From Escherichia coli (GTDB lineage: Bacteria; Pseudomonadota; Gammaproteobacteria; Enterobacterales; Enterobacteriaceae): a DNA stretch of 43,029 nt. The DNA lies in assembly GCA_033901515.1 (NCBI GenBank), contig GCA_033901515.1_4984.1. One strand, 5' to 3'. This document shows positions 650-43,029 of the stretch, piece by piece (within the stretch, counting starts at the first letter, position 1; each line of letters begins with the position of its first letter). The translations under genes were made by a program, and so were the position numbers. The notes under the pieces were generated by a model. The model had not been told where the DNA came from, made no database searches, and saw nothing but the letters and a program-made list of their open reading frames with translations.

Positions 650-2659
650 TTACGAGGTCTTCAATATACCAGCAGTACGCAGACTAGCCATGAGGTTGTT
701 CACAGCTACACTAGCTGCGTCTGTACCAGAGCTATTACTTACTGCTGCAGCAGCATTAGGGCCGATTGCAATGAATCCAGCAGGAGCATCAGAGGTGGGT
801 TTAGTAGTACTAGCACGAAGCTGCCCAGTGCTAGACATCCAAACGTAATAACCGTTAAGCCGAATGTAACCATCCCGGTAGTCTCCTCGGAATTCAATAC
901 CACCTTTCTGCACTGGACCAGCCCAGCCGGAACCTGCATCAATTGTACCACGAAGGCTGTTAGGTTCCATGAACGGATTCGTTACGTTGTTGCCCAGTTT
1001 AATGCTCGCACTAACAGTGCTACGGTCACAGCACCCATTCAGGATAACGAAGGAGTCCTGCTGCGCAATTTGCAGGGTGATGGCGCTACTGCTAGTACTA
1101 TCACTTTGAATGCTGATACGGTTGCCTGTTCCCAGGTTATAGATCTCCCCGGTAACTGGGTTGCGCGAGCCACCGCCAAGACGACCTGCAATATTAGCGC
1201 TTGCACCGGTACCTAAACCATCTGTGCGGATACTGAACACGGTACTATCACAGCCCAGAGCTGTGAAGCTCTTAACGTGGCAGTCCTTAACAGTACAGCG
1301 CACCAAATCCCGTAGCTCCATAGGCCAGCGCGGAGTAGTTACATCACACAGAGTAGTGCGGAAGCACCCTTGCAAGAACACCTGCGCTCCCACGATGTCC
1401 TTGAACATACTATCGGCAGCACCATAGAACCACACACCTCGTGTAACTGGGCTACGAGGCGCCTCACAAGTCACACCCTGCAGCTGCATGTCCCGGTTCC
1501 AGGAGTAGTACGGGGTATAAAAAGCATCTACGAACACAGCATAATCACCCTGGGTACCTGTAGCCACAGTGTTCGTAACGGTAAGGCCACGAATCTGTGC
1601 ACCTGGGCAGGACATAAACTTGATCGCGGCATTATCTGTAACCGCTACACTACCACCGGCTTTGATATCCTGGACACGCATACGCCCAAAACAGTAGCTG
1701 TGGTTGATCGTACTGGGCTCCTGTACACCGCGGGCGTAAATACCGGTACTAACCAGTCCGTAAGTAAAGGCATAGATTAGTCGATCAATCTCCATACCCC
1801 GGACTTCTGGGTACGCCGCCTGACGAATCTCTAGACGCTTAATTCGCCCACCACCGTGTACACTAGACCGCCCAATCCAGCCAGTCTTAACCAGCCAAGG
1901 GTTGATGTGTTCATAATACAGTGCCTGGTCTAGTACTAATGCAGTACTGCTTACACTCTCTACTCTCGCAAACTCCATGTACGCAGTGTGGGCCTCAACG
2001 GAATCAGTGCCAGAGATATTCTCAACACGAATTATATCGCCCGCTTTAAACATACCCTCGAAATTGCCAGGTATGCTGTAGGTCCCGGCACTGATTGTAT
2101 CTGACAGTTGCACAGCAGCTTCAAGTCTACGGAACACCGGAGAAGTATATGTGTACCTGGTGCCTGTAGCAATAGTTAGGGAACTACTGCTAGCAGCGGC
2201 TACAACTGCGAAATCCGTACCAATCGCGTTCCCACGCACAGCACTGCCGCCAATGGTATCGTCCAAACTGATAGCGATAACATCACCAGCTCTAAATCCT
2301 GAGAAGTCTCCGAGGAACTCTGTGGTGCCGACTGGAACATCCTCCCATCCTAGGGAGGTTGCTACAGAATAATCTGAGCTAAAGTGTTCACCCTGCAGCA
2401 CGAGCGTAAAGTCCAGAAATGCACCTGGCGCTACCTCTACGTCTACACCGTAATCCAGAGTGATCTTATCACTGGTGTAAGTGCCCTCAGAGAACTTACA
2501 AGGACAGTTGCGGGACTTTGCTGCAGCTAAAGCATCTATGATACACGCAGCGTTAGCACTAGAGGAATTATCAGGGTTATAGCCATACTGCTCTGGGGTA
2601 GTGAATCCTAAAGGATCCAGTACCGGTGCACCTGCTTTTACCATTTTAACTAAAGCCAT
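650..2659 (-). CDS. Second receptor-binding protein / tailspike (candidate depolymerase), terminal gene
   Basis: 669-aa ORF; ATG at 2657-2659 preceded by AAGGTGGGAG. Lacks the T7 gp17-like N-terminal anchor seen in the 6626..8950 ORF. Call rests on size and position after the lysis cassette. Confidence 0.55.
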   Translation of the reverse strand: MALVKMVKAGAPVLDPLGFTTPEQYGYNPDNSSSANAACIIDALAAAKSRNCPCKFSEGTYTSDKITLDYGVDVEVAPGAFLDFTLVLQGEHFSSDYSVATSLGWEDVPVGTTEFLGDFSGFRAGDVIAISLDDTIGGSAVRGNAIGTDFAVVAAASSSSLTIATGTRYTYTSPVFRRLEAAVQLSDTISAGTYSIPGNFEGMFKAGDIIRVENISGTDSVEAHTAYMEFARVESVSSTALVLDQALYYEHINPWLVKTGWIGRSSVHGGGRIKRLEIRQAAYPEVRGMEIDRLIYAFTYGLVSTGIYARGVQEPSTINHSYCFGRMRVQDIKAGGSVAVTDNAAIKFMSCPGAQIRGLTVTNTVATGTQGDYAVFVDAFYTPYYSWNRDMQLQGVTCEAPRSPVTRGVWFYGAADSMFKDIVGAQVFLQGCFRTTLCDVTTPRWPMELRDLVRCTVKDCHVKSFTALGCDSTVFSIRTDGLGTGASANIAGRLGGGSRNPVTGEIYNLGTGNRISIQSDSTSSSAITLQIAQQDSFVILNGCCDRSTVSASIKLGNNVTNPFMEPNSLRGTIDAGSGWAGPVQKGGIEFRGDYRDGYIRLNGYYVWMSSTGQLRASTTKPTSDAPAGFIAIGPNAAAAVSNSSGTDAASVAVNNLMASLRTAGILKTS

Positions 2660-3268
2660 TTAAGCTCCCACCTTATTGAGTGCAGCTACAGCTGCGTTAA
2701 CATCCTTGAACTGGTTCCCAATGGCCTTGCTCTGCCATTGCCTGCGTTCCCACAGACCCCAGCACACTCTATTGCGCTGTCCATTGATGTGCTGGGAGCA
2801 GTCGAAGGTCCAGCGATTACGGCCCTTGTATACCCAACCGGCCCCTGGGGACTTCTGTTGGTACTTGCTAATGTAGCGCCAGTCCAGTACAGCCTTTCCA
2901 GCCGCTACATAATCTAGGTTTTTGAGATGCCGCTTCACGGCACTGCCGTTGAAGCCTGCTACACCTACATTATAAATGAAGTCTACTGACCCAATTAGAG
3001 CCACGTCAGAGAGCTGCATAGGAAGCCCATCAAGGGCCCTTGCATGTGCCCCTGCTGATTCTATCAGTTGCTTCTGACAATCGCTCAGAGAGGCTCTCTG
3101 GCCCATTTTGACGCCTTTAGTCTCCCCATAGCAGATTGTAGGAATGCCTGCACTGTCTTTGTATGCTGTAAGGCTCAAACCTTCATTGTGTTGGACTACC
3201 TCAGTAATAGCTCCGCCGAGCATAGTAGCCCCGGCGAGTGCCGCTATAACCCTAGTCCTTAAACTCAT
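2660..3268 (-). CDS. SAR endolysin (GH24 / T4-lysozyme-type muramidase)
   Basis: 202 aa; N-terminal Gly/Ala-rich signal-anchor-release-type segment RVIAALAGATMLGGAIT; catalytic spacing E-x8-D-x5-T in HNEGLSLTAYKDSAGIPT. Confidence 0.8.
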   Translation of the reverse strand: MSLRTRVIAALAGATMLGGAITEVVQHNEGLSLTAYKDSAGIPTICYGETKGVKMGQRASLSDCQKQLIESAGAHARALDGLPMQLSDVALIGSVDFIYNVGVAGFNGSAVKRHLKNLDYVAAGKAVLDWRYISKYQQKSPGAGWVYKGRNRWTFDCSQHINGQRNRVCWGLWERRQWQSKAIGNQFKDVNAAVAALNKVGA

Positions 3269-3503
3269 ATTTAATCGCCCCCTTACGTGCGTGCTCTTCT
3301 AGGAGCTTGTATGTGCGTCGTTTATAATATGCATTCCACGCCAGGGTTAGCACTGCGCATACCGTCGCAGTGATAAAGCTGATAACACTCCAGTTCCAGC
3401 TCATTAACTCCGCCAACCAGCCTCCTGAGACTGTAGCACCAGTAACAGCCGCCCCTGCCCGGGTAGCGAGGTCTGCCCCAACTCCATCTCCCACTTTAAT
3501 CAT
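3252..3503 (-). CDS. Holin-like small membrane protein (possibly pinholin-type)
   Basis: 83 aa; hydrophobic segment WSVISFITATVCAVLTLAW plus a weakly hydrophobic Gly/Ala-rich N-terminal segment; basic C-terminus; overlaps the spanin stop and endolysin start. Confidence 0.55.
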   Translation of the reverse strand: MIKVGDGVGADLATRAGAAVTGATVSGGWLAELMSWNWSVISFITATVCAVLTLAWNAYYKRRTYKLLEEHARKGAIKYEFKD

Positions 3504-3900
3504 CCTGCTGACCCTTCTTCCTAAACAGCTTACGAATCACCAGAATGGTCACTAGGAAGACCAAAGGAATGCTGGCCCCTGCTAATCCGGCGAGGATAAG
3601 GCTGTAACTATCATTGTTAACCACTTGTAGGCGCTCTGCCTGGATTGTGCCGGTACTAATAGTCTGCACTTGCTTCTTGCTAGAAGTATCCAGGGTACCC
3701 ACGTTAGAATCCTGTACATCAGTTTTGTTGGTGGTGCTGGAGTCCACCTTATTATTTAACCCAAGCATCTGCTTAGTATTCTCAGCACCCACCTGTGCAG
3801 ATACTTCCGGCTTAGAACCAACTAAGCCGGTAAGTGCAGAGGTCGCTGAGCAACCAGTCAGAGTAGCCACGAGTAGTAACCCAGCGACCAGCTTACGCAT
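3496..3900 (-). CDS. Unimolecular spanin (u-spanin)
   Basis: 134 aa; N-terminal lipoprotein signal with lipobox LTGC (MRKLVAGLLLVATLTGC) and C-terminal TM helix LILAGLAGASIPLVFLVTILVI followed by RKLFRKK. Confidence 0.7.
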   Translation of the reverse strand: MRKLVAGLLLVATLTGCSATSALTGLVGSKPEVSAQVGAENTKQMLGLNNKVDSSTTNKTDVQDSNVGTLDTSSKKQVQTISTGTIQAERLQVVNNDSYSLILAGLAGASIPLVFLVTILVIRKLFRKKGQQDD

Positions 3901-4082
3901 TAGCTAGCAGCCTTCACAGCGGTAATAGCTGTTTCTAAGGCAGCAATCTTGGCGTCGAAGGCGGCACCAGTCTGGGCTACGTCCTGTGGTTGTGTAAGGA
4001 TAACATACAGATCCTTACCTAGAATATTCAGCTGACGCAGTAGCTCCTGCTGTTGTGCTTGAGTTGCCTTTGCAATTGCCAT
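3900..4082 (-). CDS. Hypothetical protein (60 aa, Ala/Gln-rich, predicted helical)
   Basis: ATG at 4080-4082 with RBS AAGGAG; tightly packed between neighbours. Confidence 0.45.
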   Translation of the reverse strand: MAIAKATQAQQQELLRQLNILGKDLYVILTQPQDVAQTGAAFDAKIAALETAITAVKAAS

Positions 4083-4093
4083 GTGTACTCTCC

Positions 4094-4468
4094 TTATTCT
4101 TCCGCATCAGTAGCGACTACGAACGCACTTTGCAGTGCAGTGAATGATGTATCAAATGCCGTACCAGAGCCTTCACCTAGTGGCATACCTGTACCCGTAA
4201 GGGCAACGTAGCCAGTCTTCGAGAGCTGCGATAGCATGCTGAATAGGCGCGCCTGCAACGTCCCATCAGCCTTAAAGGCTGTGCCGGCGCGGGTGGCCGT
4301 ATAACCCTGGGATTGCATGTACGTAAAGAACGTATTCAGTGTGTCCAGAGCCGCAGTGCCGACAAAACCCACGTTGTAATCCGGAGATACTTGCTTTTCC
4401 AGATTCTGGGCCTTACCCACAATCTCATACTGTACATCTACAGCTTTAGCCGCGATGATTGATGCCAT
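4094..4468 (-). CDS. Hypothetical protein (124 aa)
   Basis: ATG overlaps the large terminase stop (TAATG); no recognisable motif. Confidence 0.5.
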   Translation of the reverse strand: MASIIAAKAVDVQYEIVGKAQNLEKQVSPDYNVGFVGTAALDTLNTFFTYMQSQGYTATRAGTAFKADGTLQARLFSMLSQLSKTGYVALTGTGMPLGEGSGTAFDTSFTALQSAFVVATDAEE

Positions 4469-6324
4469 TATCTTCTTCCTCTATGTTGTTTACCTCTGCC
4501 CCGGTTCTGCAACCGAGCCGCTACACCGCGAAGTCCCTTAGACAATTTGCTCTGTGCCCAATCTAGCGGGTTCTCAATGAAGGCCAGGGCCATCTTCTCG
4601 GACTCACGCTCAGCTACTACTTTCTCGTCTTCTACCAGGTGCCCATTCAGCACTGCCACCATCATAGCGATGGCGTCTGCCCGGTCATCCTTCGCTAGAC
4701 TTCCCCGGTCGTACGTAATACCTGCGAGCTGTGCGAACGCAGAGTATAACCATCGACGGTCTCGGGAGTAGAGCATACAAGTCCCGATATCATCTTGAAT
4801 AGCACGCTCATGCACCACCAGGCGATGTCGTCGAGTTACAGGGCTGATTGTGTCAATAATACGACGCTCTTTCTGCGTGGTGTTGTTGATATCGCGTACA
4901 CCGATACCGGCAAGGCGACGCTCCCTCAGGCGGTTCAGAATCAACATGGACACAGTACCGTGCCCCATGTTGCTCTCCACCACCATGTCAGAGATATCCA
5001 ACTCTACGCACAAATCAATGAGCTTATCAATATTCTCAGTGCTTACGCCTCCTTGGAAACCCCCAACGGAGAATAAGTGAATGTATGAGTTTGCAGCCCC
5101 ACCAGCAGCGTAGGACACTTCATCCCCACCACAACCCGCTGGGTCCACCACTAGCACCTTATGCTGATACGGTAGATGCATATCCCCATAGAATGCCGGA
5201 GAGTACATCTGCTGACCCATAATCCCCTCATGCTCGTGCTGGTACAAGTACCGACGGTCTGCGATGTAGGAGAAGGTCTCAGGTGAGGAATCTAGGCTAC
5301 CGGAGTACACAAGCATATCCGACAACTTGATACGGGTGCGCATCTGGTCAGACAAGGTTGTGTCGAGCATGTACTGCAGCTGGAAGCCCTCTGGGCCGAA
5401 GTCCAGCTCCTTCTCAATCAGCGCATCCTCGTCATAGCGACCGGTGTCTGTGCTCTCACCTAGTGTCCCGTCTACTCCGAACCCGGTACGTTTATAACCC
5501 CGCTCAATGAGCTGCAGTATATAAGGAGCAAGTGTACTTCCATATCGTTCTTCCATTTCAACTGACGGGATGCGCCCAGGCCACACTCGGACCTCGAAAC
5601 CACGCCCCGGCAGGGTTTTATAGATACTGTCCTTGGTCTGCGGTGTACCCAGGTACAGCGTATCCCCATGCGTACAGATAGCTGCGAAGTCTTTTGAAAT
5701 CATCAGCAACTGCTCACGCTGGGTTTGTGTCAAACCATTCTTAGTAGTCTCGATATCGTCTGGAATCAAGAGGTCAGCACGCTTACCTTGCAGGGATGCA
5801 GTGATACCGACACAGGCGACACTAGCAGACTTATCCAGCGGTTTCAGATCACAGTTGACATCATAACCTTCGAATGAAGTACGGTCCCCTCGAGTAGGGT
5901 CCGCCTTCAAGTAGCACAGTAGCGGCCAGGTTTCCAGCATACGAATGATTAAGTTCGCAACGTCGGACGCCTGTTTCTCCGCACCAGATACTATCAGTAT
6001 ACGGCAGGATTGGTCCTGGATGAGCCGCCAGACAGCATACAGCGCAGCCAGTGTAGACTTAGCTTCACCACGCTGTGCGGCTACCATGCGCTTCCTGGGA
6101 CCCTTCTGCATATACTCTGCGATATCGGCTTGCATGTCCGTCAGCGTAAAGCCCAAGAAGCGCATACCTATATATGCGAACTCCCTAAAATTGCTGAGGG
6201 TAGCCGCCATCATCATGGCGATATCCTCGCGCTCCTCTTTGGGAATACTGCGCGGATTCGCACTATAACCAGTAAGTTTCTGGTTGAGCATGCGCAGTCT
6301 TCGCGCAGTCTTCGCCGATACCAT
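4468..6324 (-). CDS. Terminase large subunit (DNA maturase B)
   Basis: 618 aa; deviant Walker A-like AAQRGEAKST; size and position after the small terminase match T7 gp19. Confidence 0.8.
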   Translation of the reverse strand: MVSAKTARRLRMLNQKLTGYSANPRSIPKEEREDIAMMMAATLSNFREFAYIGMRFLGFTLTDMQADIAEYMQKGPRKRMVAAQRGEAKSTLAALYAVWRLIQDQSCRILIVSGAEKQASDVANLIIRMLETWPLLCYLKADPTRGDRTSFEGYDVNCDLKPLDKSASVACVGITASLQGKRADLLIPDDIETTKNGLTQTQREQLLMISKDFAAICTHGDTLYLGTPQTKDSIYKTLPGRGFEVRVWPGRIPSVEMEERYGSTLAPYILQLIERGYKRTGFGVDGTLGESTDTGRYDEDALIEKELDFGPEGFQLQYMLDTTLSDQMRTRIKLSDMLVYSGSLDSSPETFSYIADRRYLYQHEHEGIMGQQMYSPAFYGDMHLPYQHKVLVVDPAGCGGDEVSYAAGGAANSYIHLFSVGGFQGGVSTENIDKLIDLCVELDISDMVVESNMGHGTVSMLILNRLRERRLAGIGVRDINNTTQKERRIIDTISPVTRRHRLVVHERAIQDDIGTCMLYSRDRRWLYSAFAQLAGITYDRGSLAKDDRADAIAMMVAVLNGHLVEDEKVVAERESEKMALAFIENPLDWAQSKLSKGLRGVAARLQNRGRGKQHRGRR

Positions 6325-6626
6325 TAGACAATTCCTTCTAGTAAGTCCTCAGAGTCTGAATCACTAATCTTGTTTAAAATCTCTTTCTTACGCGCCTCTC
6401 TGCGCGCCGCTAGTTCGTCATCAAATTCGTCGCGAAGGTCCTGCATCTCCTCGGAATCTGCATCCGCGGTGATATCATTATCCTTCAAGAACTTAGCAAT
6501 GACTGATTTATCTGCGGCGGGGAGCGGCACCTCGTCTTTTTTGGACTGCTTGATTTCTTCAATCAAGGCCTCAGTGAACATGCGGTGCAGCTCCGAGAGG
6601 CGACTGCGTTTAGCCGCCCCTGCCAT
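6324..6626 (-). CDS. Terminase small subunit (DNA maturase A)
   Basis: Tool ORF starts at TTG 6641. I prefer ATG 6624-6626 (RBS GGGGGA, overlaps tail-fiber stop as TAATG), giving about 100 aa with an acidic C-terminus. Position as T7 gp18. Confidence 0.6.
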   Translation of the reverse strand: MAGAAKRSRLSELHRMFTEALIEEIKQSKKDEVPLPAADKSVIAKFLKDNDITADADSEEMQDLRDEFDDELAARREARKKEILNKISDSDSEDLLEGIV

Positions 6627-8950
6627 TATATAGTCCCCCAAGCTTGTCTGTATACAGCGTAATGCAACGCACTATTTAGTAGGGATGTATAGTCCCCCGC
6701 TACGAACGCCTGACTAGCCTCATCCCACTTACGTACCACAGAGTAAGATGCAGCAACGCTGTGAACTTTATAGTAAGCACCTCCTACTAAAATAAACTCC
6801 CCAGCACTTAGTCCGGACGATCCCAATGCTATAACCGTCTCGTTTGCAACTATGCTGTTATATAGAGAGTAGGCTGGACCCCAACCGCTATTGGATGGAA
6901 GGGTCCCTTCCCCGCGTACGAAATTATCCTCCCCTACTGTAGCGGAGTACATGCAGTATGGCGCCTCTGCCTTAAACCTATAGAACCGGGTATTGCCACT
7001 GGATGGGTACCCCCTAGGCGTAGTATTGTATGGGATGCCGTTTGTTTGCACTCCCCGATAATATTGGCGCTCCATATAAGAGTAAACACAGCCATTTGAG
7101 GTCTTAGGCACATACAGGAAGCACCTACCGATATTCTCGTGTGTGTTCCTGCCTATATGTACATAAATCATCCCCCCGGTAGTCGCAATAGAATCTATAC
7201 AGTTACTGAACATGTTTGAGTCAATGTTGCAGTAACCGACAGCGTTCTTCATCCGTACACCTTGGCTTGAGGTCGAGGACGCCCCAATAAATGTATTAGA
7301 TTTAACGTTGACTTGATACGCAGCTGTGTTTATACGGTTTAAGAATACCCCCGAGTTTGAAAACATTTCGAACCTGCAGCCTACTACGTCTGCGTTACCG
7401 CAAGACTCTAGAAACACCCCCACGGATACGTTGCGAGCCACTACTCCGCTGATTACTACACTATTCGCATAGCCTTGAGTAGTGGATGAGCCCTCATTCC
7501 CGAAGATATCTATAGCATTGTCCGTAATATTCTGTAGGATACAATCTGATATGACTGCACCATCTGGACGCTCACACTGTATTCCTATGTACCCAGTGTT
7601 AGTCACTACACAACCACGCACTGTCAGATTAGAGCACCCATAGGTGCCTGCACCTGCCCGCCTAAAGTAGAGGCCCCCGGAAGGACTACTAAGTACGCGC
7701 ACGCCTTCACACACCACGTTAGTGGAGTCGAGTATATTAACGCACGTAATACCAGTACCAGCATTCTGTGCAACGTTACCGTCGAAGGTTATATTTGAGA
7801 TTGTGACAGAATCCGCACTGCCGTCCCAGTTGGTCAATATAGCCCCAGAAGAAGTTCCGCCAACACCGCCATTCAGGGTTATAGTCCCCCCACCGGTGAG
7901 AGTCACCCCAGAGCGTATATTTAGGGCGGACCGACCAGCAGATAGCTCACCAGCAACCGCCAAACTGTTAGAGTTTAGGGATACACGGTAATGCCCGGTG
8001 GCTAGCACCGTAGTAGGACCTGAACCTCTAACAGCATTAATATGTGCAGCATCCAGGGCAGCCTGCAAAGCCATACGCCAATCCCCGGTACTATCCGCAT
8101 AGGCTTCTGGATAGATGAATGGTACTCCACCTAAGTAGTTAAATCCATTATCCGAACTTAGCAGCCCTAAAATACTTGCAACTGCACCTGTGTCAACATC
8201 GGTATCTACACCAATAGTCATATCTACTAAGGTGCCTGCTGGTACAGTTTCTGCGAACGTCACTGTGCCGTTACGGATACTATAAGAATAGCCCGCGGTC
8301 TGAGTTACTCCATTTAACCTAATCTTAGCCTTAGTAAATGGTACTCCTGGGGTAATGGTGTTCGTGTCAGCTGGCACTACAGTCCACCACGGGAAGCTAT
8401 TAGTGTTAGCATTGAAGAACGTCTGCTCTAGGTTGGTAGTGCGTATATCCAGAGCGTCATCTGCAGCTTTGCGAGCAGCTGCCTCTGCGTCAATACGCGC
8501 GTCCAGGCGAGCATCCCCGGCATCAACATACTGCTTATTAGCAGCGTCGCGTGCATCCACAGGGTCACCCAGGTTAGTGATGCGGTAACGGTGCATGTTA
8601 ATATCGCCATAGAAACCCTCGATAGAGCGCCCTTCAACCAGCTCTTGAGCCAGGTGCAGGAACTGCGTATTCTGGGTATCTACGTTACCTTCAATGAACG
8701 GGGCACCACTAGCAAATTCAATGTAGAGGTACTCTCGTGCAGTCTTACGAATAAGAAGCACCACTGTCTCTGCAGACAGTGGGGAGTTCAGACGAATGTT
8801 GGTGGAGCTGGTCCAAGTGAAGGCTGTAGTCTCAGAACCATCTAAGTAAACGTGAATATAAGATTTATCCAGGTACTCGATATCACACTGGATATCCCGA
8901 GTACCTGTAGGCTTTACCGACTCTTGCCAGCTGTATGCCATATTAATCAT
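6626..8950 (-). CDS. Tail fiber / tailspike with T7 gp17-like N-terminal anchor and beta-helix-like body
   Basis: 774 aa; N-terminus (DIEYLDKSYIHVYLDG ... HRYRITNLGDPVDARDAANKQYVD) resembles the T7 gp17 N-terminal tail-attachment domain from memory; remainder is Gly/Ser/Thr/Asn-rich repeats (NITFDGNVAQNAG ...). Confidence 0.75.
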   Translation of the reverse strand: MINMAYSWQESVKPTGTRDIQCDIEYLDKSYIHVYLDGSETTAFTWTSSTNIRLNSPLSAETVVLLIRKTAREYLYIEFASGAPFIEGNVDTQNTQFLHLAQELVEGRSIEGFYGDINMHRYRITNLGDPVDARDAANKQYVDAGDARLDARIDAEAAARKAADDALDIRTTNLEQTFFNANTNSFPWWTVVPADTNTITPGVPFTKAKIRLNGVTQTAGYSYSIRNGTVTFAETVPAGTLVDMTIGVDTDVDTGAVASILGLLSSDNGFNYLGGVPFIYPEAYADSTGDWRMALQAALDAAHINAVRGSGPTTVLATGHYRVSLNSNSLAVAGELSAGRSALNIRSGVTLTGGGTITLNGGVGGTSSGAILTNWDGSADSVTISNITFDGNVAQNAGTGITCVNILDSTNVVCEGVRVLSSPSGGLYFRRAGAGTYGCSNLTVRGCVVTNTGYIGIQCERPDGAVISDCILQNITDNAIDIFGNEGSSTTQGYANSVVISGVVARNVSVGVFLESCGNADVVGCRFEMFSNSGVFLNRINTAAYQVNVKSNTFIGASSTSSQGVRMKNAVGYCNIDSNMFSNCIDSIATTGGMIYVHIGRNTHENIGRCFLYVPKTSNGCVYSYMERQYYRGVQTNGIPYNTTPRGYPSSGNTRFYRFKAEAPYCMYSATVGEDNFVRGEGTLPSNSGWGPAYSLYNSIVANETVIALGSSGLSAGEFILVGGAYYKVHSVAASYSVVRKWDEASQAFVAGDYTSLLNSALHYAVYRQAWGTI

Positions 8951-11900
8951 CTCCGAAGTTATTGATGATAGCTCGCGTAGGTGCGAATTCCTGGATTAAC
9001 GGGACCTGTTTAGTGAAGGTCTGGATATCCATATCCCCAGTAGCCAGGGCTTGCACTGCACCCAGCAGACCAGTGACGTAACCCATAGATGCCAGAGAGT
9101 GGCGCGGTGAGTCCCCAGTGAAGATATCCTGCAGAAGCGAGATACCGCCAATGGCGCTCATACCCATAACTGACTCAGCGACAAGTTTCTGAGTATCGAC
9201 CTCTTTACCGTCCATACCGTGCTTAGCCATAGTTGCTAGAAGCATCAATGGGAACTGGTATGCCATGATGTGTGCAACCCCAATCCACCCAGCATCGTTC
9301 AGCTCTCGGCGCAGAATCTTGTTGGTGGCAGCCAGGGCGAAGCTCTGGTAGCCGACAATTACTTTGCCGATAGGGTTGAACTGGGCGAAGTGTGAGGTCT
9401 CACCGGTACGTACCTGCTGTACCAGGTAGTCCATCATACGCGTACCTACCACCTCAACTTGCATTTGCAGGTCCGGCTGGAACATAGCACCAGGGTTAGC
9501 CTTGTTGGCCGCGATAGCACGGTCCGCAACGTCGCGAGTAAGCCCGAAACGTTCCAGACGCTTAAACGCCTCAGCGTCCCCTTTGAACATCCGCTGGAGC
9601 TCGTCCGCTACAATACCTGAGTTAAGGTTAACCTGCAGTCGATGTACCATACTCATTCCGTTGATGTGACGCGCAGCCTGTCCAATGTTCTGGGTGACGT
9701 TAAACCATGAGGCTTGACGGGTCAGATCCAAGTTATCGTCTGCATAGGTATTCAACCAACGGAAGCGCATCTCCTTCTGAATACTACCACGTAGGATTGC
9801 ATCCAGACGACTAGCCATATCCGGAGTGCGAATAGCTACGGAACCTTCTTTAAACCAAGGCTGCTCACGCATACCACGCAGCACTCGGGACATACCAAAC
9901 TCTTTCAGCGCTAGGGCGATGTCAGTAAGCTGGTACAACCCGGAGTTCTTGAGCATGGTAGCGTTGGCCATGTTACCAGCTGCACGGAGCAGGTCCGGCA
10001 TTTGACCGGCATCGGCTGGTGCCCCACCTAAGATAAAGTCGATGGTGTCATTAACGGTCTTCTCCCACTTACCGGAATCAGCCAGAGCGTGCTTGGACTC
10101 ATTAATCATCGTCTCTAGTGTTTTTAGGTCAGAGACTCCGGCATAAGCCATACCTACACGACCTGACATTCGGTTAGTGTAACCGTGCATAACCTTAGCT
10201 ACATCAGTATCCATCAGATCCTGCATGCGCATAACCTGGCCATCTACGATGTACTCTTTGTCCATGTTGAAGCGGGTACGTTGACGGAGGTTCTTAGCAG
10301 GCGAGGTAGCACCGGATTCTCGGACATTACCTGCCAAGAAACTCTGGATTGCACTCTCGTCTACGCCAGCATTACGCATAACCATGACTACTTCGTCGTT
10401 ACCCATACCGTTGATGAGTTGCTTCCACATAGGACCAGAAGCCGAGGAGCGCCCGTTATAGATACCGTCAACCATCTCCTTAGCAACGCGCTGAACAACC
10501 TCAGGTTCCATAGACGGGTACACATCACGCAATGCCTGGCGGAATAAATCTCGGTAGTTATCCAGGGAGCGACCGTTCGCAATACCTTGGCGCATCTTAT
10601 CGTAGCTGTACTGGCGCGGGAAATAGTAGTCTGATTTAACCAGAGTACCGTCATCCACTAAACCGGCAGCGGTCATGTGATCATGCCACTTACTGGCCCA
10701 ACCAGAGTTGCGATACGCCTCAACAAGCGGAACTAAGTCAGAGTCCGGCAGAGGCACGGGGCGTCCGTTAACCTCAGCACTGTATGCAGAGTCCAGGTAA
10801 CGGCCTAAGCGGTCTTCCAAGTCAGCTCGTGCTGCTCTGAAGTTGCTACGATGGAAGAAGCGGTCCAGGAAACCTACACCCTTATCCTTGAGGGCACCGA
10901 GTATAGCGTCTTCAACTATACTAGCACTAGCATCCATTTCCAAGGTAAGGTTACGCTTAAAGTCCACCACAGACGGTTTACGACCGCCTACAGCAGTAGC
11001 ATCAGATACTAGTAAGCGTGCGAGGTCCTCACTACCCTCTGCGATGTTATCATACAAGGAGAACATAGTGGCGAGCTTACGCTTAGCAGTGTCCATCATA
11101 GCTTGGGCCTGCAAGGCCTCGTTCTTAACTGATGTACCTGCCAAGTCCTGGAAGGACTCACTCCTGAAGCTCTGAGCTTGGTCTGCGTAGTCCTTTGCGG
11201 TCCACTTGACAGCGTCCTCGTACGCGTCCAGAACATCCTCCAGAGCAGACCCCTTGGTGCGAACCCCTAGGGCGTTCATGATGTATTCACCAATCTGGCG
11301 AAGCATGCTTTTACCAGTAGGGGATTTAGTTCTAGAGAGGTACTCTACCCACTCAGGGCTGTCTCCCAGCCCGGCCAGCATTTCGTGCACATCACTTGCA
11401 TAATACTTGAATTTATCACTAAGAGTTGAATCTGCTGCTATTGCAGCGCGCACCTCTTCCAGCTTACTGGCAATTTCCGGATTCTGCTTAATAGCTCTGG
11501 TGGTGGCAGCGTGAATCAGTTCGTGCACTGCTACTCGGCTAGTGTCCGCATCCATAGCACGCAGAGCATCCCCGGCAGTAGTCCAGGTACTTCCGTTCGC
11601 TTTCTTAGGGGCACGTAAAGATACAAAACCCCTATCAGTTGTTGATGCTGGTGAAAACCCGTAGTGGCTACGGTTAGAAGAACCGGCCACCAGTTTAAAA
11701 TCAATGTCCTGTACTGCATCACCCAGGGTGTCCAGGATAGCCTTCTGACCTTTAGATAAGTGTTCAGAGGTCTTGAGGAAACGGACTACATCCTGCGCTT
11801 TCATGTTAACAGCGGCGGTGTTATTTCGGCGAACTTGGATAGGTTCATCCAGTACCTTAGTGAGGATTGTGTCTCCCTCTCCTACTCCTGTAACATTAGC

Positions 11901-12641
11901 ATCCCTCGCTGTACGAGTTGTGGGCGCGTCCGGGTCAAACATAGGCTCACGCCCAGTACGCGCCTTTGCTGCCGCTTTAGCAGCCTTAGACATGTCCCAG
12001 AGCTGGTCTAGTCCAGCTACACCTGCTACCAGAGCAGTGACTGCAGCAGACTGCCCCAACTGGTCCTGCGCATAGACAGCTGTACCTACATCCGCTGCAC
12101 GGATAGCAGTGCGTACTGCTAAGCCAGCACGACCAGCAACACCTGCTGCCGACATCGGGGCCAGGATAAATGGGGCGTCCCCAGCCAACGCACCAGCGAA
12201 CCCAGCTACGGTGTTATCAGACATCTGACGGTCACGGTCACGCTGTTCTAGCATAGCCTGAATGCGGTAATTATAATCATCCAGGGACACCGCCCCGTGC
12301 AAGTAATCAATCTCTTCCTGATTCGGAGTATAGAGCTTAGCACGGGAGTCAGTGCTTAGTTGCTTCTTAGCATCAAAACCCTGCTCTGGAATGAATGCCG
12401 GGGCAGAGGCTTTGCGGATAGCTGCAGCGATGGTGCTATTGCCCATACCAGAAGCAAAGCTCTCTGCAGCTGTAGTAGCAGGAGTCTTGGCCTGCGCTAG
12501 TAAGGAGGCACGCTCCAGTGCATTTAATCCGTCGTCACCGGCATCGTTCCAATCTATACGCGCAGGCGCAGGTTTAAGGGTTGTACCCTTAGCAGAATCC
12601 TTTTCCTGTGGATTCGGTTCTTGGTTCAGAAATTGAGCCAT
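8943..12641 (-). CDS. Internal virion (ejectosome) protein, gp16-like
   Basis: 1232 aa, largest ORF; position after the gp14/gp15-like ORFs as in T7; contains a zincin-like VAVHELIHAA motif. Confidence 0.7.
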   Translation of the reverse strand: MAQFLNQEPNPQEKDSAKGTTLKPAPARIDWNDAGDDGLNALERASLLAQAKTPATTAAESFASGMGNSTIAAAIRKASAPAFIPEQGFDAKKQLSTDSRAKLYTPNQEEIDYLHGAVSLDDYNYRIQAMLEQRDRDRQMSDNTVAGFAGALAGDAPFILAPMSAAGVAGRAGLAVRTAIRAADVGTAVYAQDQLGQSAAVTALVAGVAGLDQLWDMSKAAKAAAKARTGREPMFDPDAPTTRTARDANVTGVGEGDTILTKVLDEPIQVRRNNTAAVNMKAQDVVRFLKTSEHLSKGQKAILDTLGDAVQDIDFKLVAGSSNRSHYGFSPASTTDRGFVSLRAPKKANGSTWTTAGDALRAMDADTSRVAVHELIHAATTRAIKQNPEIASKLEEVRAAIAADSTLSDKFKYYASDVHEMLAGLGDSPEWVEYLSRTKSPTGKSMLRQIGEYIMNALGVRTKGSALEDVLDAYEDAVKWTAKDYADQAQSFRSESFQDLAGTSVKNEALQAQAMMDTAKRKLATMFSLYDNIAEGSEDLARLLVSDATAVGGRKPSVVDFKRNLTLEMDASASIVEDAILGALKDKGVGFLDRFFHRSNFRAARADLEDRLGRYLDSAYSAEVNGRPVPLPDSDLVPLVEAYRNSGWASKWHDHMTAAGLVDDGTLVKSDYYFPRQYSYDKMRQGIANGRSLDNYRDLFRQALRDVYPSMEPEVVQRVAKEMVDGIYNGRSSASGPMWKQLINGMGNDEVVMVMRNAGVDESAIQSFLAGNVRESGATSPAKNLRQRTRFNMDKEYIVDGQVMRMQDLMDTDVAKVMHGYTNRMSGRVGMAYAGVSDLKTLETMINESKHALADSGKWEKTVNDTIDFILGGAPADAGQMPDLLRAAGNMANATMLKNSGLYQLTDIALALKEFGMSRVLRGMREQPWFKEGSVAIRTPDMASRLDAILRGSIQKEMRFRWLNTYADDNLDLTRQASWFNVTQNIGQAARHINGMSMVHRLQVNLNSGIVADELQRMFKGDAEAFKRLERFGLTRDVADRAIAANKANPGAMFQPDLQMQVEVVGTRMMDYLVQQVRTGETSHFAQFNPIGKVIVGYQSFALAATNKILRRELNDAGWIGVAHIMAYQFPLMLLATMAKHGMDGKEVDTQKLVAESVMGMSAIGGISLLQDIFTGDSPRHSLASMGYVTGLLGAVQALATGDMDIQTFTKQVPLIQEFAPTRAIINNFGDD

Positions 12642-42952: not shown

Positions 42953-43029
42953 AGTTCCCTAAAACCCTCCTACTCCTGTAACATCATTTCTTAATAGCTT
43001 TCGAATGAAAGTAAAGGTGAAGGGATAGC
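42953..43029. repeat. Terminal direct repeat, right copy
   Basis: Exact 77-bp copy of 1..77. Confidence 0.9.

Follow-up and report, generated by a model that had tools for sequence, protein, structure and literature searches.

A divergent putative depolymerase as the probable second tailspike of a KP34-like podophage from an Escherichia coli assembly

Genes at the locus

The window, by which we mean the whole stretch of DNA analysed (43,029 nucleotides, contig GCA_033901515.1_4984.1 of the Escherichia coli assembly GCA_033901515.1), is one complete podophage genome of about 43 kilobases (kb) that is read on the minus strand. Our subject is the gene at 650..2659 on the minus strand, an open reading frame (ORF) with an ATG start that encodes 669 amino acids in the ORF list. 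The ORF, its homologues, a structure model and a fold match mark its product as a tailspike and putative polysaccharide depolymerase, and with high confidence we take it to be the secondary receptor-binding protein (RBP2) of a group B KP34-like (Drulisvirus) podophage. Its proposed partner, RBP1, is the primary tail fibre or tailspike, a protein of 771 amino acids that is encoded at 6626..8941 (minus strand) and recognised by PF03906, PF13229, PHROG tail fibre families and homologues. The RBP2 gene adjoins the 3' end of the endolysin gene, and terminase and lysis genes lie between RBP2 and RBP1.

The endolysin stop codon (TAA, 2662-2660) abuts the RBP2 ATG (2659-2657) with no spacer. A GGAG at 2668-2665, 5 nucleotides 5' of the ATG, lies within the 3' end of the endolysin gene, where the sequence has a Shine-Dalgarno-like stretch (AAGGTGGGAG, 2665..2674, minus strand), and we infer that the two genes are translationally coupled. 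For a conservation test, 71 IMG/VR loci were fetched via their endolysin, and the post-endolysin ORF was extracted in 50 drulisvirus loci; in these 50 the RBP2 start lies 0-12 nucleotides past the endolysin stop.

No further credible ORF was found between position 650 and the end of the window, and window positions 1 to about 590 match the left-end non-coding DNA of linear relatives (140-749 of SFN6B and 1-529 of ZH5). RBP2 is therefore truly the last gene before the genome end, where the original prediction, a reading of the letters and their ORFs, had placed it. The GC content of the gene, 0.50-0.52, equals that of the genome, so that a compositional trace of recent import was not found, and no convincing intrinsic terminator was seen directly 3' of the gene.

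The phage backbone

Of the 260 phage records that match a 17-kb block of structural and lysis genes, 116 span 80% or more of the block; nucleotide identity is about 90-92% in the best of them. The closest backbones are those of the Escherichia phages EC22.5-2, ZH5 and Minorna, the Klebsiella phages Hope and KPV811, and the Shigella phage SFN6B, all of them Autographiviridae, Slopekvirinae, Drulisvirus (KP34-like). Gene order in the window is identical to that of KpV74, KPV811 and Hope. Megablast with the RBP2 gene gave no match to phages (50,697 records), complete E. coli genomes (5,426) or plasmids (72,556). Measured against locus L005, the terminase large subunit (TerL) is 98.7% identical, RBP1 92.7% and RBP2 78.9%, which makes RBP2 the fastest-evolving of the three; the expectation that a terminal tailspike would be the most variable gene agrees with both the comparison and the lack of a nucleotide match in phages.

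KP34viruses carry two RBP genes with maturase and lysis genes between them (Latka et al. 2019, PMC6872550). RBP1 has a T7 gp17-like anchor and a T4gp10-like fragment of a branching domain, at amino acids 186-242 in KP34 (PMC6872550), and RBP2 combines an enzymatic domain with an N-terminal heptapeptide, MALxxLV, that is universally conserved (PMC6872550). In group B, unlike group A, RBP1 is long (530-948 amino acids) and has an enzymatic domain of its own (PMC6872550).

Homology and fold of the RBP2 body

The depolymerase body of RBP2 spans amino acids 30-634 (758..2572, minus strand), as delimited by phmmer against 7VUL, by Foldseek, by the secondary structure of the model and by family-invariant residues. 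The single PDB match found by phmmer is 7VUL ("Structure of Klebsiella Phage P560 depolymerase"), at E 1.3e-155 over amino acids 30-634 with about 43% identity; this match and homologues at E = 0 to 1e-206 rule out chance for the gene. RBP2 is also about 43% identical to second RBPs of the Dpo43/P560dep type in Przondovirus K47 phages (IME205, SH-KP152226, P560 and others), 44-46% identical to gp206 of the 160-kb Klebsiella phage RCIP0012, and 44% identical to the second fibre (TF2) of the Escherichia Gamaleyavirus Mimir124. Identity to any deposited phage protein, in 50,697 phage genomes, is at most 46%, and tblastn with RBP2 returned just 21 phage records, all below 60% identity. P560dep (PMC9437526) and Dpo43 (PMC7034173) are both experimentally active capsule depolymerases.

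An AlphaFold2 model of RBP2 with 26 homologues as input has a mean predicted local distance difference test (pLDDT) score of 85. Its body consists of a helical neck at about amino acids 22-49, a beta-rich N-proximal part, a right-handed beta-helix at about 255-560 and a short C-terminal domain. Foldseek aligned the model to 7VUL with template modelling (TM) scores of 0.85/0.91; the next matches were LKA1 gp49, AP22 gp54, phi297 gp61, the Klebsiella K1 lyase, K64-1 S2-4 and KP34p57, and after these tailspikes came GH110 and GH28 beta-helix enzymes. The beta-helix, carbohydrate-active fold on which the original prediction had staked its reading was thus found in RBP2, by homology to 7VUL as well as in the model.

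The RBP2 family is small, with 67 cluster representatives at E < 1e-3 among 1.84 billion. By BLASTP, RBP2 resembles its counterpart in Hope, the nearest relative by backbone, in the first residues only, which rules out simple orthology with the RBP2s of its neighbours. Four orthologues of 669 amino acids, at 99, 89, 79 and 76% identity, are each paired with a 771-amino-acid RBP1 in a drulisvirus contig, and all are intact. The body is found in other settings as well: prophages of Klebsiella and E. coli have it behind PF18668 (TSP1/Gp66 N-terminal), prophage tailspikes of E. coli (P0013) have it behind PF09008, the head-binding domain of P22, and other proteins have it joined to PF12708.

Six residues, R211, E229, D342, D378, P383 and Y384, are invariant in 34 family members down to about 20% identity, and E213, N214, N343, K347, Q370 and D545 are nearly invariant in the same alignment. 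All are present in RBP2, and their conservation makes them candidate substrate-binding or catalytic residues. They also bear on the idea that RBP2 is a binding-only or decayed spike, which has kept its fold and lost catalysis. Degenerate RBP2s do occur in the genus (61-84 amino acids in L031, L034 and L040; KP-Rio/2015, PMC6872550), and no catalytic residues have been defined for the family. RBP2, however, is full length and keeps every one of the invariant residues, and its four orthologues are likewise intact, so that we give such decay very little credence.

A putative N-terminal docking peptide shared by unrelated bodies

PF03906 was not found in the 669-amino-acid RBP2 by a Pfam search, even at E 0.01, and RBP2 is therefore not a primary fibre. 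What it has at its N-terminus is a short putative docking peptide, the 'conserved' peptide of amino acids 1-14 (MALVKMVKAGAPVL, 2618..2659, minus strand), recognised by its fit to MALxxLV, its conservation and its disorder in the model. The core heptapeptide, MALVKMV (2639-2659, minus strand), fits the MALxxLV of the second RBPs of KP34 viruses.

The full-length RBP2s of the 50 loci sort into 18 clusters by body, with essentially no relation between clusters: only four pairs of representatives show any BLASTP similarity. MAL-x-x-[L/M/I]-[V/I] nonetheless opens 15-16 of these 18 bodies; column by column, the heptapeptide counts are M in 18, A in 15, L in 16, two variable positions, L in 13 (plus M and I) and V in 14 (plus I in 3). 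A short conserved N-terminal docking peptide had been proposed for comparison with relatives, and these counts bear the proposal out. The conserved stretch is too short for BLAST, and tblastn with the first 70 amino acids of RBP2 gave no match.

Residues 1-16 of RBP2 are disordered in the model and precede the helical neck. This resembles KP34gp57, whose first 26 residues are unresolved and have been described as a flexible, hydrophobic part by which the spike is anchored (PMC10653864). When the PDB was searched with KP34 gp57 for a virion structure showing the docked peptide, only the isolated 8BKE came up.

RBP1 as anchor and probable adapter

RBP1 carries the T7 gp17-like N-terminal anchor, for virion attachment, at 8522..8944 (minus strand; PF03906 at amino acids 3-143, E 3.4e-16). 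The distinction drawn in the original prediction, in which the 774-amino-acid fibre has the anchor and the 669-amino-acid protein lacks it, holds. Residues 1 to about 258 of RBP1 are nearly invariant in an alignment across drulisvirus anchors. Amino acids 4-293 match PDB 23sh_r ("tail fiber gp9") at E 5e-107, and amino acids 4-259 match PDB 8ES4, the gp44 tailspike adapter of Shigella phage HRP29 (so named in bioRxiv 10.64898/2026.05.12.724579), at E 1.5e-67.

Between the anchor and the enzymatic part lies a beta 'knob' or branching region, at amino acids ~183-243 of the 771-amino-acid protein (8213..8395, minus strand). The model, the alignment and the PDB adapters make it the putative socket for the RBP2 peptide. 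RBP1 ends in its own beta-helix, depolymerase-like domain and a C-terminal domain (6626..8014, minus strand), recognised by PF13229, Foldseek and identity to Dpo42. In a low-confidence model RBP1 comprises an N-terminal barrel, a long helix at 130-176, the beta knob at 183-243 (pLDDT 72-85) and a beta-helix at ~310-620; its Foldseek matches include the HK620 tailspike and AlgE4, among others. The two-tailspike reading thus gains a partner with both an anchor and an adapter or branching region.

The late position of the RBP2 gene, after the lysis cassette and away from the other structural genes, could suggest another fate for the protein: that it is made late and released, wholly or largely, as a soluble depolymerase at lysis and is not a tail component. 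An engineered phage without the branching domain does produce free RBP2, with semi-turbid halos (PMC13352976). A soluble enzyme, however, would have no need of the hydrophobic N-terminal peptide that is kept across unrelated bodies, and the branching/adapter region of RBP1 is conserved. In group A drulisviruses, moreover, the post-endolysin gene is the only RBP gene with an enzymatic domain, so that its product must be virion-borne there. We regard release as a soluble enzyme as most improbable.

The start of the RBP1 gene is almost certainly placed three codons too early in the ORF list. The listed 774-amino-acid ORF ends at 8950 and opens MINMAYSWQE (8942-8950 being the extra codons), whereas all relatives and the gene calls of L004 and L005 open MAYSWQE/MAFSWQE (771 amino acids). 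The ATG at 8941, the fourth codon of the 774-amino-acid ORF, is the probable true start; it lies one base past the stop codon of the gene upstream, which encodes an internal virion protein (8943..12641).

A proposed two-spike tail and its likely substrate

The gene and its position, the homology, fold and conserved peptide of its product, and the homology of RBP1 to anchors and adapters point together to a group B arrangement. As a member of the P560dep/Dpo43 depolymerase family, RBP2 would form a right-handed beta-helix tailspike, presumably as a trimer, and would have no domain of its own for binding the tail. Instead, a flexible, hydrophobic peptide at its N-terminus (MALVKMV...) would dock into the branching or knob region of RBP1, at about amino acids 183-243. 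RBP1, for its part, would be fixed at the adaptor-nozzle junction by the T7 gp17-like anchor and would carry its own beta-helix enzyme, so that each of the six tail positions could display two different polysaccharide-degrading spikes. RBP2 is predicted to bind and cleave an enterobacterial surface polysaccharide, most likely capsule, and this cleavage would let the virion reach the outer membrane and set part of the host range. The docking principle has been validated by phage engineering (PMC13352976); for the phage in the window, docking of RBP2 onto RBP1 is proposed from the sequence.

Several facts weigh against this reading. Trimerisation, docking, virion incorporation, enzymatic activity and substrate are all predictions for RBP2, and cleavage may be by hydrolysis or by beta-elimination. 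Searches of Pfam and PHROGs placed RBP2 in no family. Position 6 of its heptapeptide is Met where the consensus has Leu, a conservative change, and the orthologues P0003 and P0004 have MALDKLV. The RBP1 monomer model, with a mean pLDDT of 64, is of low confidence and too poor for socket analysis. Amino acids ~183-243, which align with the T4gp10-like fragment of the KP34 anchor and are covered by 8ES4 and 23sh, are a candidate T4gp10-like region. The 7VUL enzyme is listed as a lyase with details "to be published", and because its catalytic residues are unpublished (review PMC11652154) the intactness of the RBP2 active site is not certifiable. Nor can a substrate be transferred to RBP2 from the characterised enzymes at only 43% identity, and the specificity of P560dep is itself disputed (K47 subset vs KL169; PMC13385381).

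The origin of the sequence counts here as well. The exact RBP2 protein is labelled "hypothetical protein [Escherichia coli]" in NCBI (MDX7531594.1 / WP_319852056.1), which hints at E. coli as the phage host, and the receptor could then be an E. coli K- or O-antigen in place of a Klebsiella capsule. The main rival to a capsule depolymerase, which concerns the substrate alone, is the same docking tailspike with a different target. As for the tailspikes of P22, HK620 and Sf6, this would be the O-antigen or lipopolysaccharide of an E. coli or Shigella host, or else some further exopolysaccharide of that host, for example colanic acid. Many of the closest backbones belong to drulisviruses of E. coli and Shigella (EC22.5-2, ZH5, Minorna and SFN6B), E. 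coli prophage homologues of RBP2 have a P22-type head-binding domain (P0013, PF09008), and the N-terminal part of RBP1 is homologous to the adapter of a Shigella phage, HRP29. All of the experimentally characterised relatives (P560dep and Dpo43) are, on the other hand, Klebsiella capsule depolymerases, and Klebsiella phages are the source of most phage homologues of RBP1 and RBP2. On balance we consider an O-antigen or similar substrate unlikely, and capsule remains the substrate that we favour.

Comparison with known systems

The RBP2 of the window is like the group B KP34virus RBP2s (KpV74 gp56 and KP34 gp57) in its backbone, its post-endolysin position as last gene, its MALxxLV-type peptide and its lack of a gp17 anchor. 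RBP1 is likewise long, as in group B, and has its own beta-helix; at 771 amino acids with PF13229 (Beta_helix) it falls within the group B range of RBP1 lengths. The literature analogy with two-tailspike podophages that the original prediction had drawn is, for drulisviruses, exactly the published group B KP34virus model. This architecture is already well described, and what is new is the divergent RBP2 enzyme. In sequence its catalytic body is unrelated to KP34 gp57, KpV74 gp56 and the RBP2s of Hope and KPV811, and it further differs from the group B RBP2s by the Met at heptapeptide position 6 and by an extra C-terminal helix module.

In body the closest likeness is to P560dep and IME205 Dpo43, which are homologous over amino acids 30-634 and are also anchor-less second RBPs of Autographiviridae podophages. 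The P560dep/Dpo43 type is assigned to DepoCatalog class 2D ('double insertion domain'). These Przondovirus proteins differ from the RBP2 of the window in their docking segment, MLNNLNQPKGST, of about 55 amino acids, and they are without the C-terminal helix add-on. Their gene adjoins RBP1 and precedes the holin gene, whereas the RBP2 gene of the window follows the endolysin gene, and at 43% identity the substrates may differ.

The adapter gp44 of HRP29 (8ES4) is homologous to amino acids 4-259 of RBP1. In the phiKMV-like phage Ar-KM, cryo-electron microscopy shows that the next fibre (gp45) has a short hydrophobic N-terminal helix inserted in the knob of the trimeric gp44 anchor fibre (bioRxiv 10.64898/2026.05.18.726046). 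This peptide-in-socket attachment is of the same kind as that proposed for RBP2 and RBP1. Unlike the gp44 proteins of HRP29 and Ar-KM, RBP1 continues past the knob into its own beta-helix enzyme.

K1E, K1-5 and SP6 have two tailspikes per tail position, attached by conserved N-terminal peptides of 7 or 11 residues (as cited in PMC6872550). Two tailspikes per position with short conserved attachment peptides are also what we propose for the window phage. K1E, K1-5 and SP6 use a separate small adapter protein for both spikes, whereas in the window phage the first spike would be the adapter.

The two spikes as a pair

The likeness to Przondovirus extends to both spikes. The C-terminal 494 amino acids of RBP1 are 46% identical to the first RBP (Dpo42/Dep42 type) of Przondovirus K47 phages, including IME205, and by tblastn these 494 amino acids are 60% identical to RCIP0012 gp202 (56% by BLASTP over amino acids 220-771). 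The RBP1 and RBP2 bodies (6626-8014 and 758-2572) thus form a pair homologous to Dpo42 and Dpo43 of IME205 (L078 1421-5746) and to gp202 and gp206 of RCIP0012 (L077 4417-7248 and 10385-12676), and the nearest characterised relatives of both window spikes are the two spikes of IME205. The co-homology of the two spikes, as a pair, with those of IME205 and RCIP0012 is a modestly new point.

In IME205, Dpo42 and Dpo43 act on complementary subsets of K47 strains, and the sum of the two is the host range of the phage (PMC7034173). In the window the two spike genes are about 4 kb apart, with ordinary drulisvirus terminase and lysis genes between them. Because of these intervening genes a single cassette swap or recombination cannot explain why RBP1 and RBP2 occur together, and two acquisitions or selection are needed. 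This suggests, as a lead and not as a finding, selection for carrying both enzymes. That the two spikes are a functionally linked pair and not independent host-range modules is possible, though on present evidence we doubt it. If true, it would mean selection for both enzymes, directed for example at two chemical variants (acetylation or pyruvylation) of one polysaccharide or at its sequential cleavage, and would establish the use of two enzymes as a conserved solution, recurrent in three phage lineages.

An obligatory pairing was rejected. An RBP1-body homologue, P0029, stands alone in a P2-like prophage, an RBP2-body homologue, P0006, stands alone in another prophage, and Mimir124 has the RBP2-type body only.

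The group B model being published, the conceptual value of the architecture is modest. The practical value is that RBP2-type proteins, here on a plug-and-play chassis that is well understood, are starting material for host-range engineering, capsule-typing reagents and anti-virulence enzymes. The RBP1/RBP2 pair occurs in three unrelated lineages, and one such pair splits a single capsule type into two strain subsets, so that the question "why two spikes?" can be put to the test in a second system.

Where the two tailspike families occur in a myovirus, an N4-like phage or a prophage, a small gene of about 85 amino acids, particular to the family, comes after the spike gene (L077 7245-7499 and 12688-12951; L079 6067-6327; L080 9944-10198; L081 10838-11098). 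RCIP_203 and L080_84, both after RBP1-type bodies, are 57% identical, and RCIP_207, which like its two relatives follows an RBP2-type body, is 53% identical to Mimir_86 and 43% to L081_86. The window has no such post-spike gene by tblastn (E > 0.04), and in IME205 none follows Dpo43. These small proteins may be spike-specific assembly factors.

A C-terminal add-on

RBP2 ends in an add-on of amino acids 635-669 (653..757, minus strand), a disordered linker and an amphipathic helix at 649-662 (...VAVNNLMASLRTAGILKTS), recognised from the model, a recurring motif and a sub-threshold Pfam match. The add-on is missing from P560dep and Dpo43. The helix carries ...NNLMASLRTAGIL, and the Pfam match, to the C-terminus of the phi29 head fibre at amino acids 635-666, is weak.

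The motif, ...D-V-V-x-x-L-N-A-L-L-A-[AS]-L-R-[AT]-[SA]-G-[VI]-[LI]-x-x-COOH, occurs 36 times in the loci scanned, each time 2-3 residues short of the C-terminus. It caps every short (289-329 amino acids), anchor-only RBP1 of the group A drulisviruses, the truncated RBP2s of 61-84 amino acids, and the RBP2 of the window with its relatives, including RCIP0012 gp206. Examples lie at 653-757 of the window, L001 3304-4260, L003 14543-15499, L034 about 9604-9790 and L077 10385-12676. It may be a portable trimerisation cap.

In L031, L034 and L040, whose RBP1s are long (665-884 amino acids), the post-endolysin 'RBP2' of 61-84 amino acids consists of the docking peptide (MALVELVQAKAPVV...) and the C-terminal helix motif. 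These RBP2s appear to have kept both ends and lost the whole enzyme, which is the group C truncation of Latka et al.

Neighbouring genes and genome ends

The lysis cassette upstream of RBP2 (2660..3900, minus strand) was identified by Pfam and the annotations of relatives. In the order spanin, holin, endolysin it comprises a lipoprotein spanin (3496-3900, LPAM_1), a holin (3252-3503, Phage_holin_2_1, PF04971) and an endolysin (2660-3268, Phage_lysozyme, PF00959). The spanin has a lipobox and a C-terminal hydrophobic segment and is u-spanin-like. The N-terminus of the endolysin is Gly/Ala-rich and hydrophobic (MSLRTRVIAALAGATMLGGAI...), reminiscent of the signal-arrest-release endolysins of phiKMV-like phages. 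The terminase large and small subunits are encoded at 4468-6324 and 6324-6641, and two conserved ORFs lie between terminase and lysis cassette (phrog_7128 at 4094-4468 and phrog_7375 at 3900-4082).

The assembly of an E. coli isolate seems to include, as one of its contigs, the entire genome of a lytic drulisvirus, through a carrier state or contamination. Positions 1-77 of the window are repeated exactly, in direct orientation, at 42953-43029; the repeat is probably the overlap left by circularising a k=77 assembly and not a true terminal repeat of the phage. The non-coding end region (1-649) is GC-rich (0.575) and has matches in non-coding DNA at the left end of SFN6B, ZH5 and Hope. It contains short tandem repeats at 84-108, 295-325, 424-466 and 622-646, and an 11-nucleotide C/G homopolymer run at 471-481.

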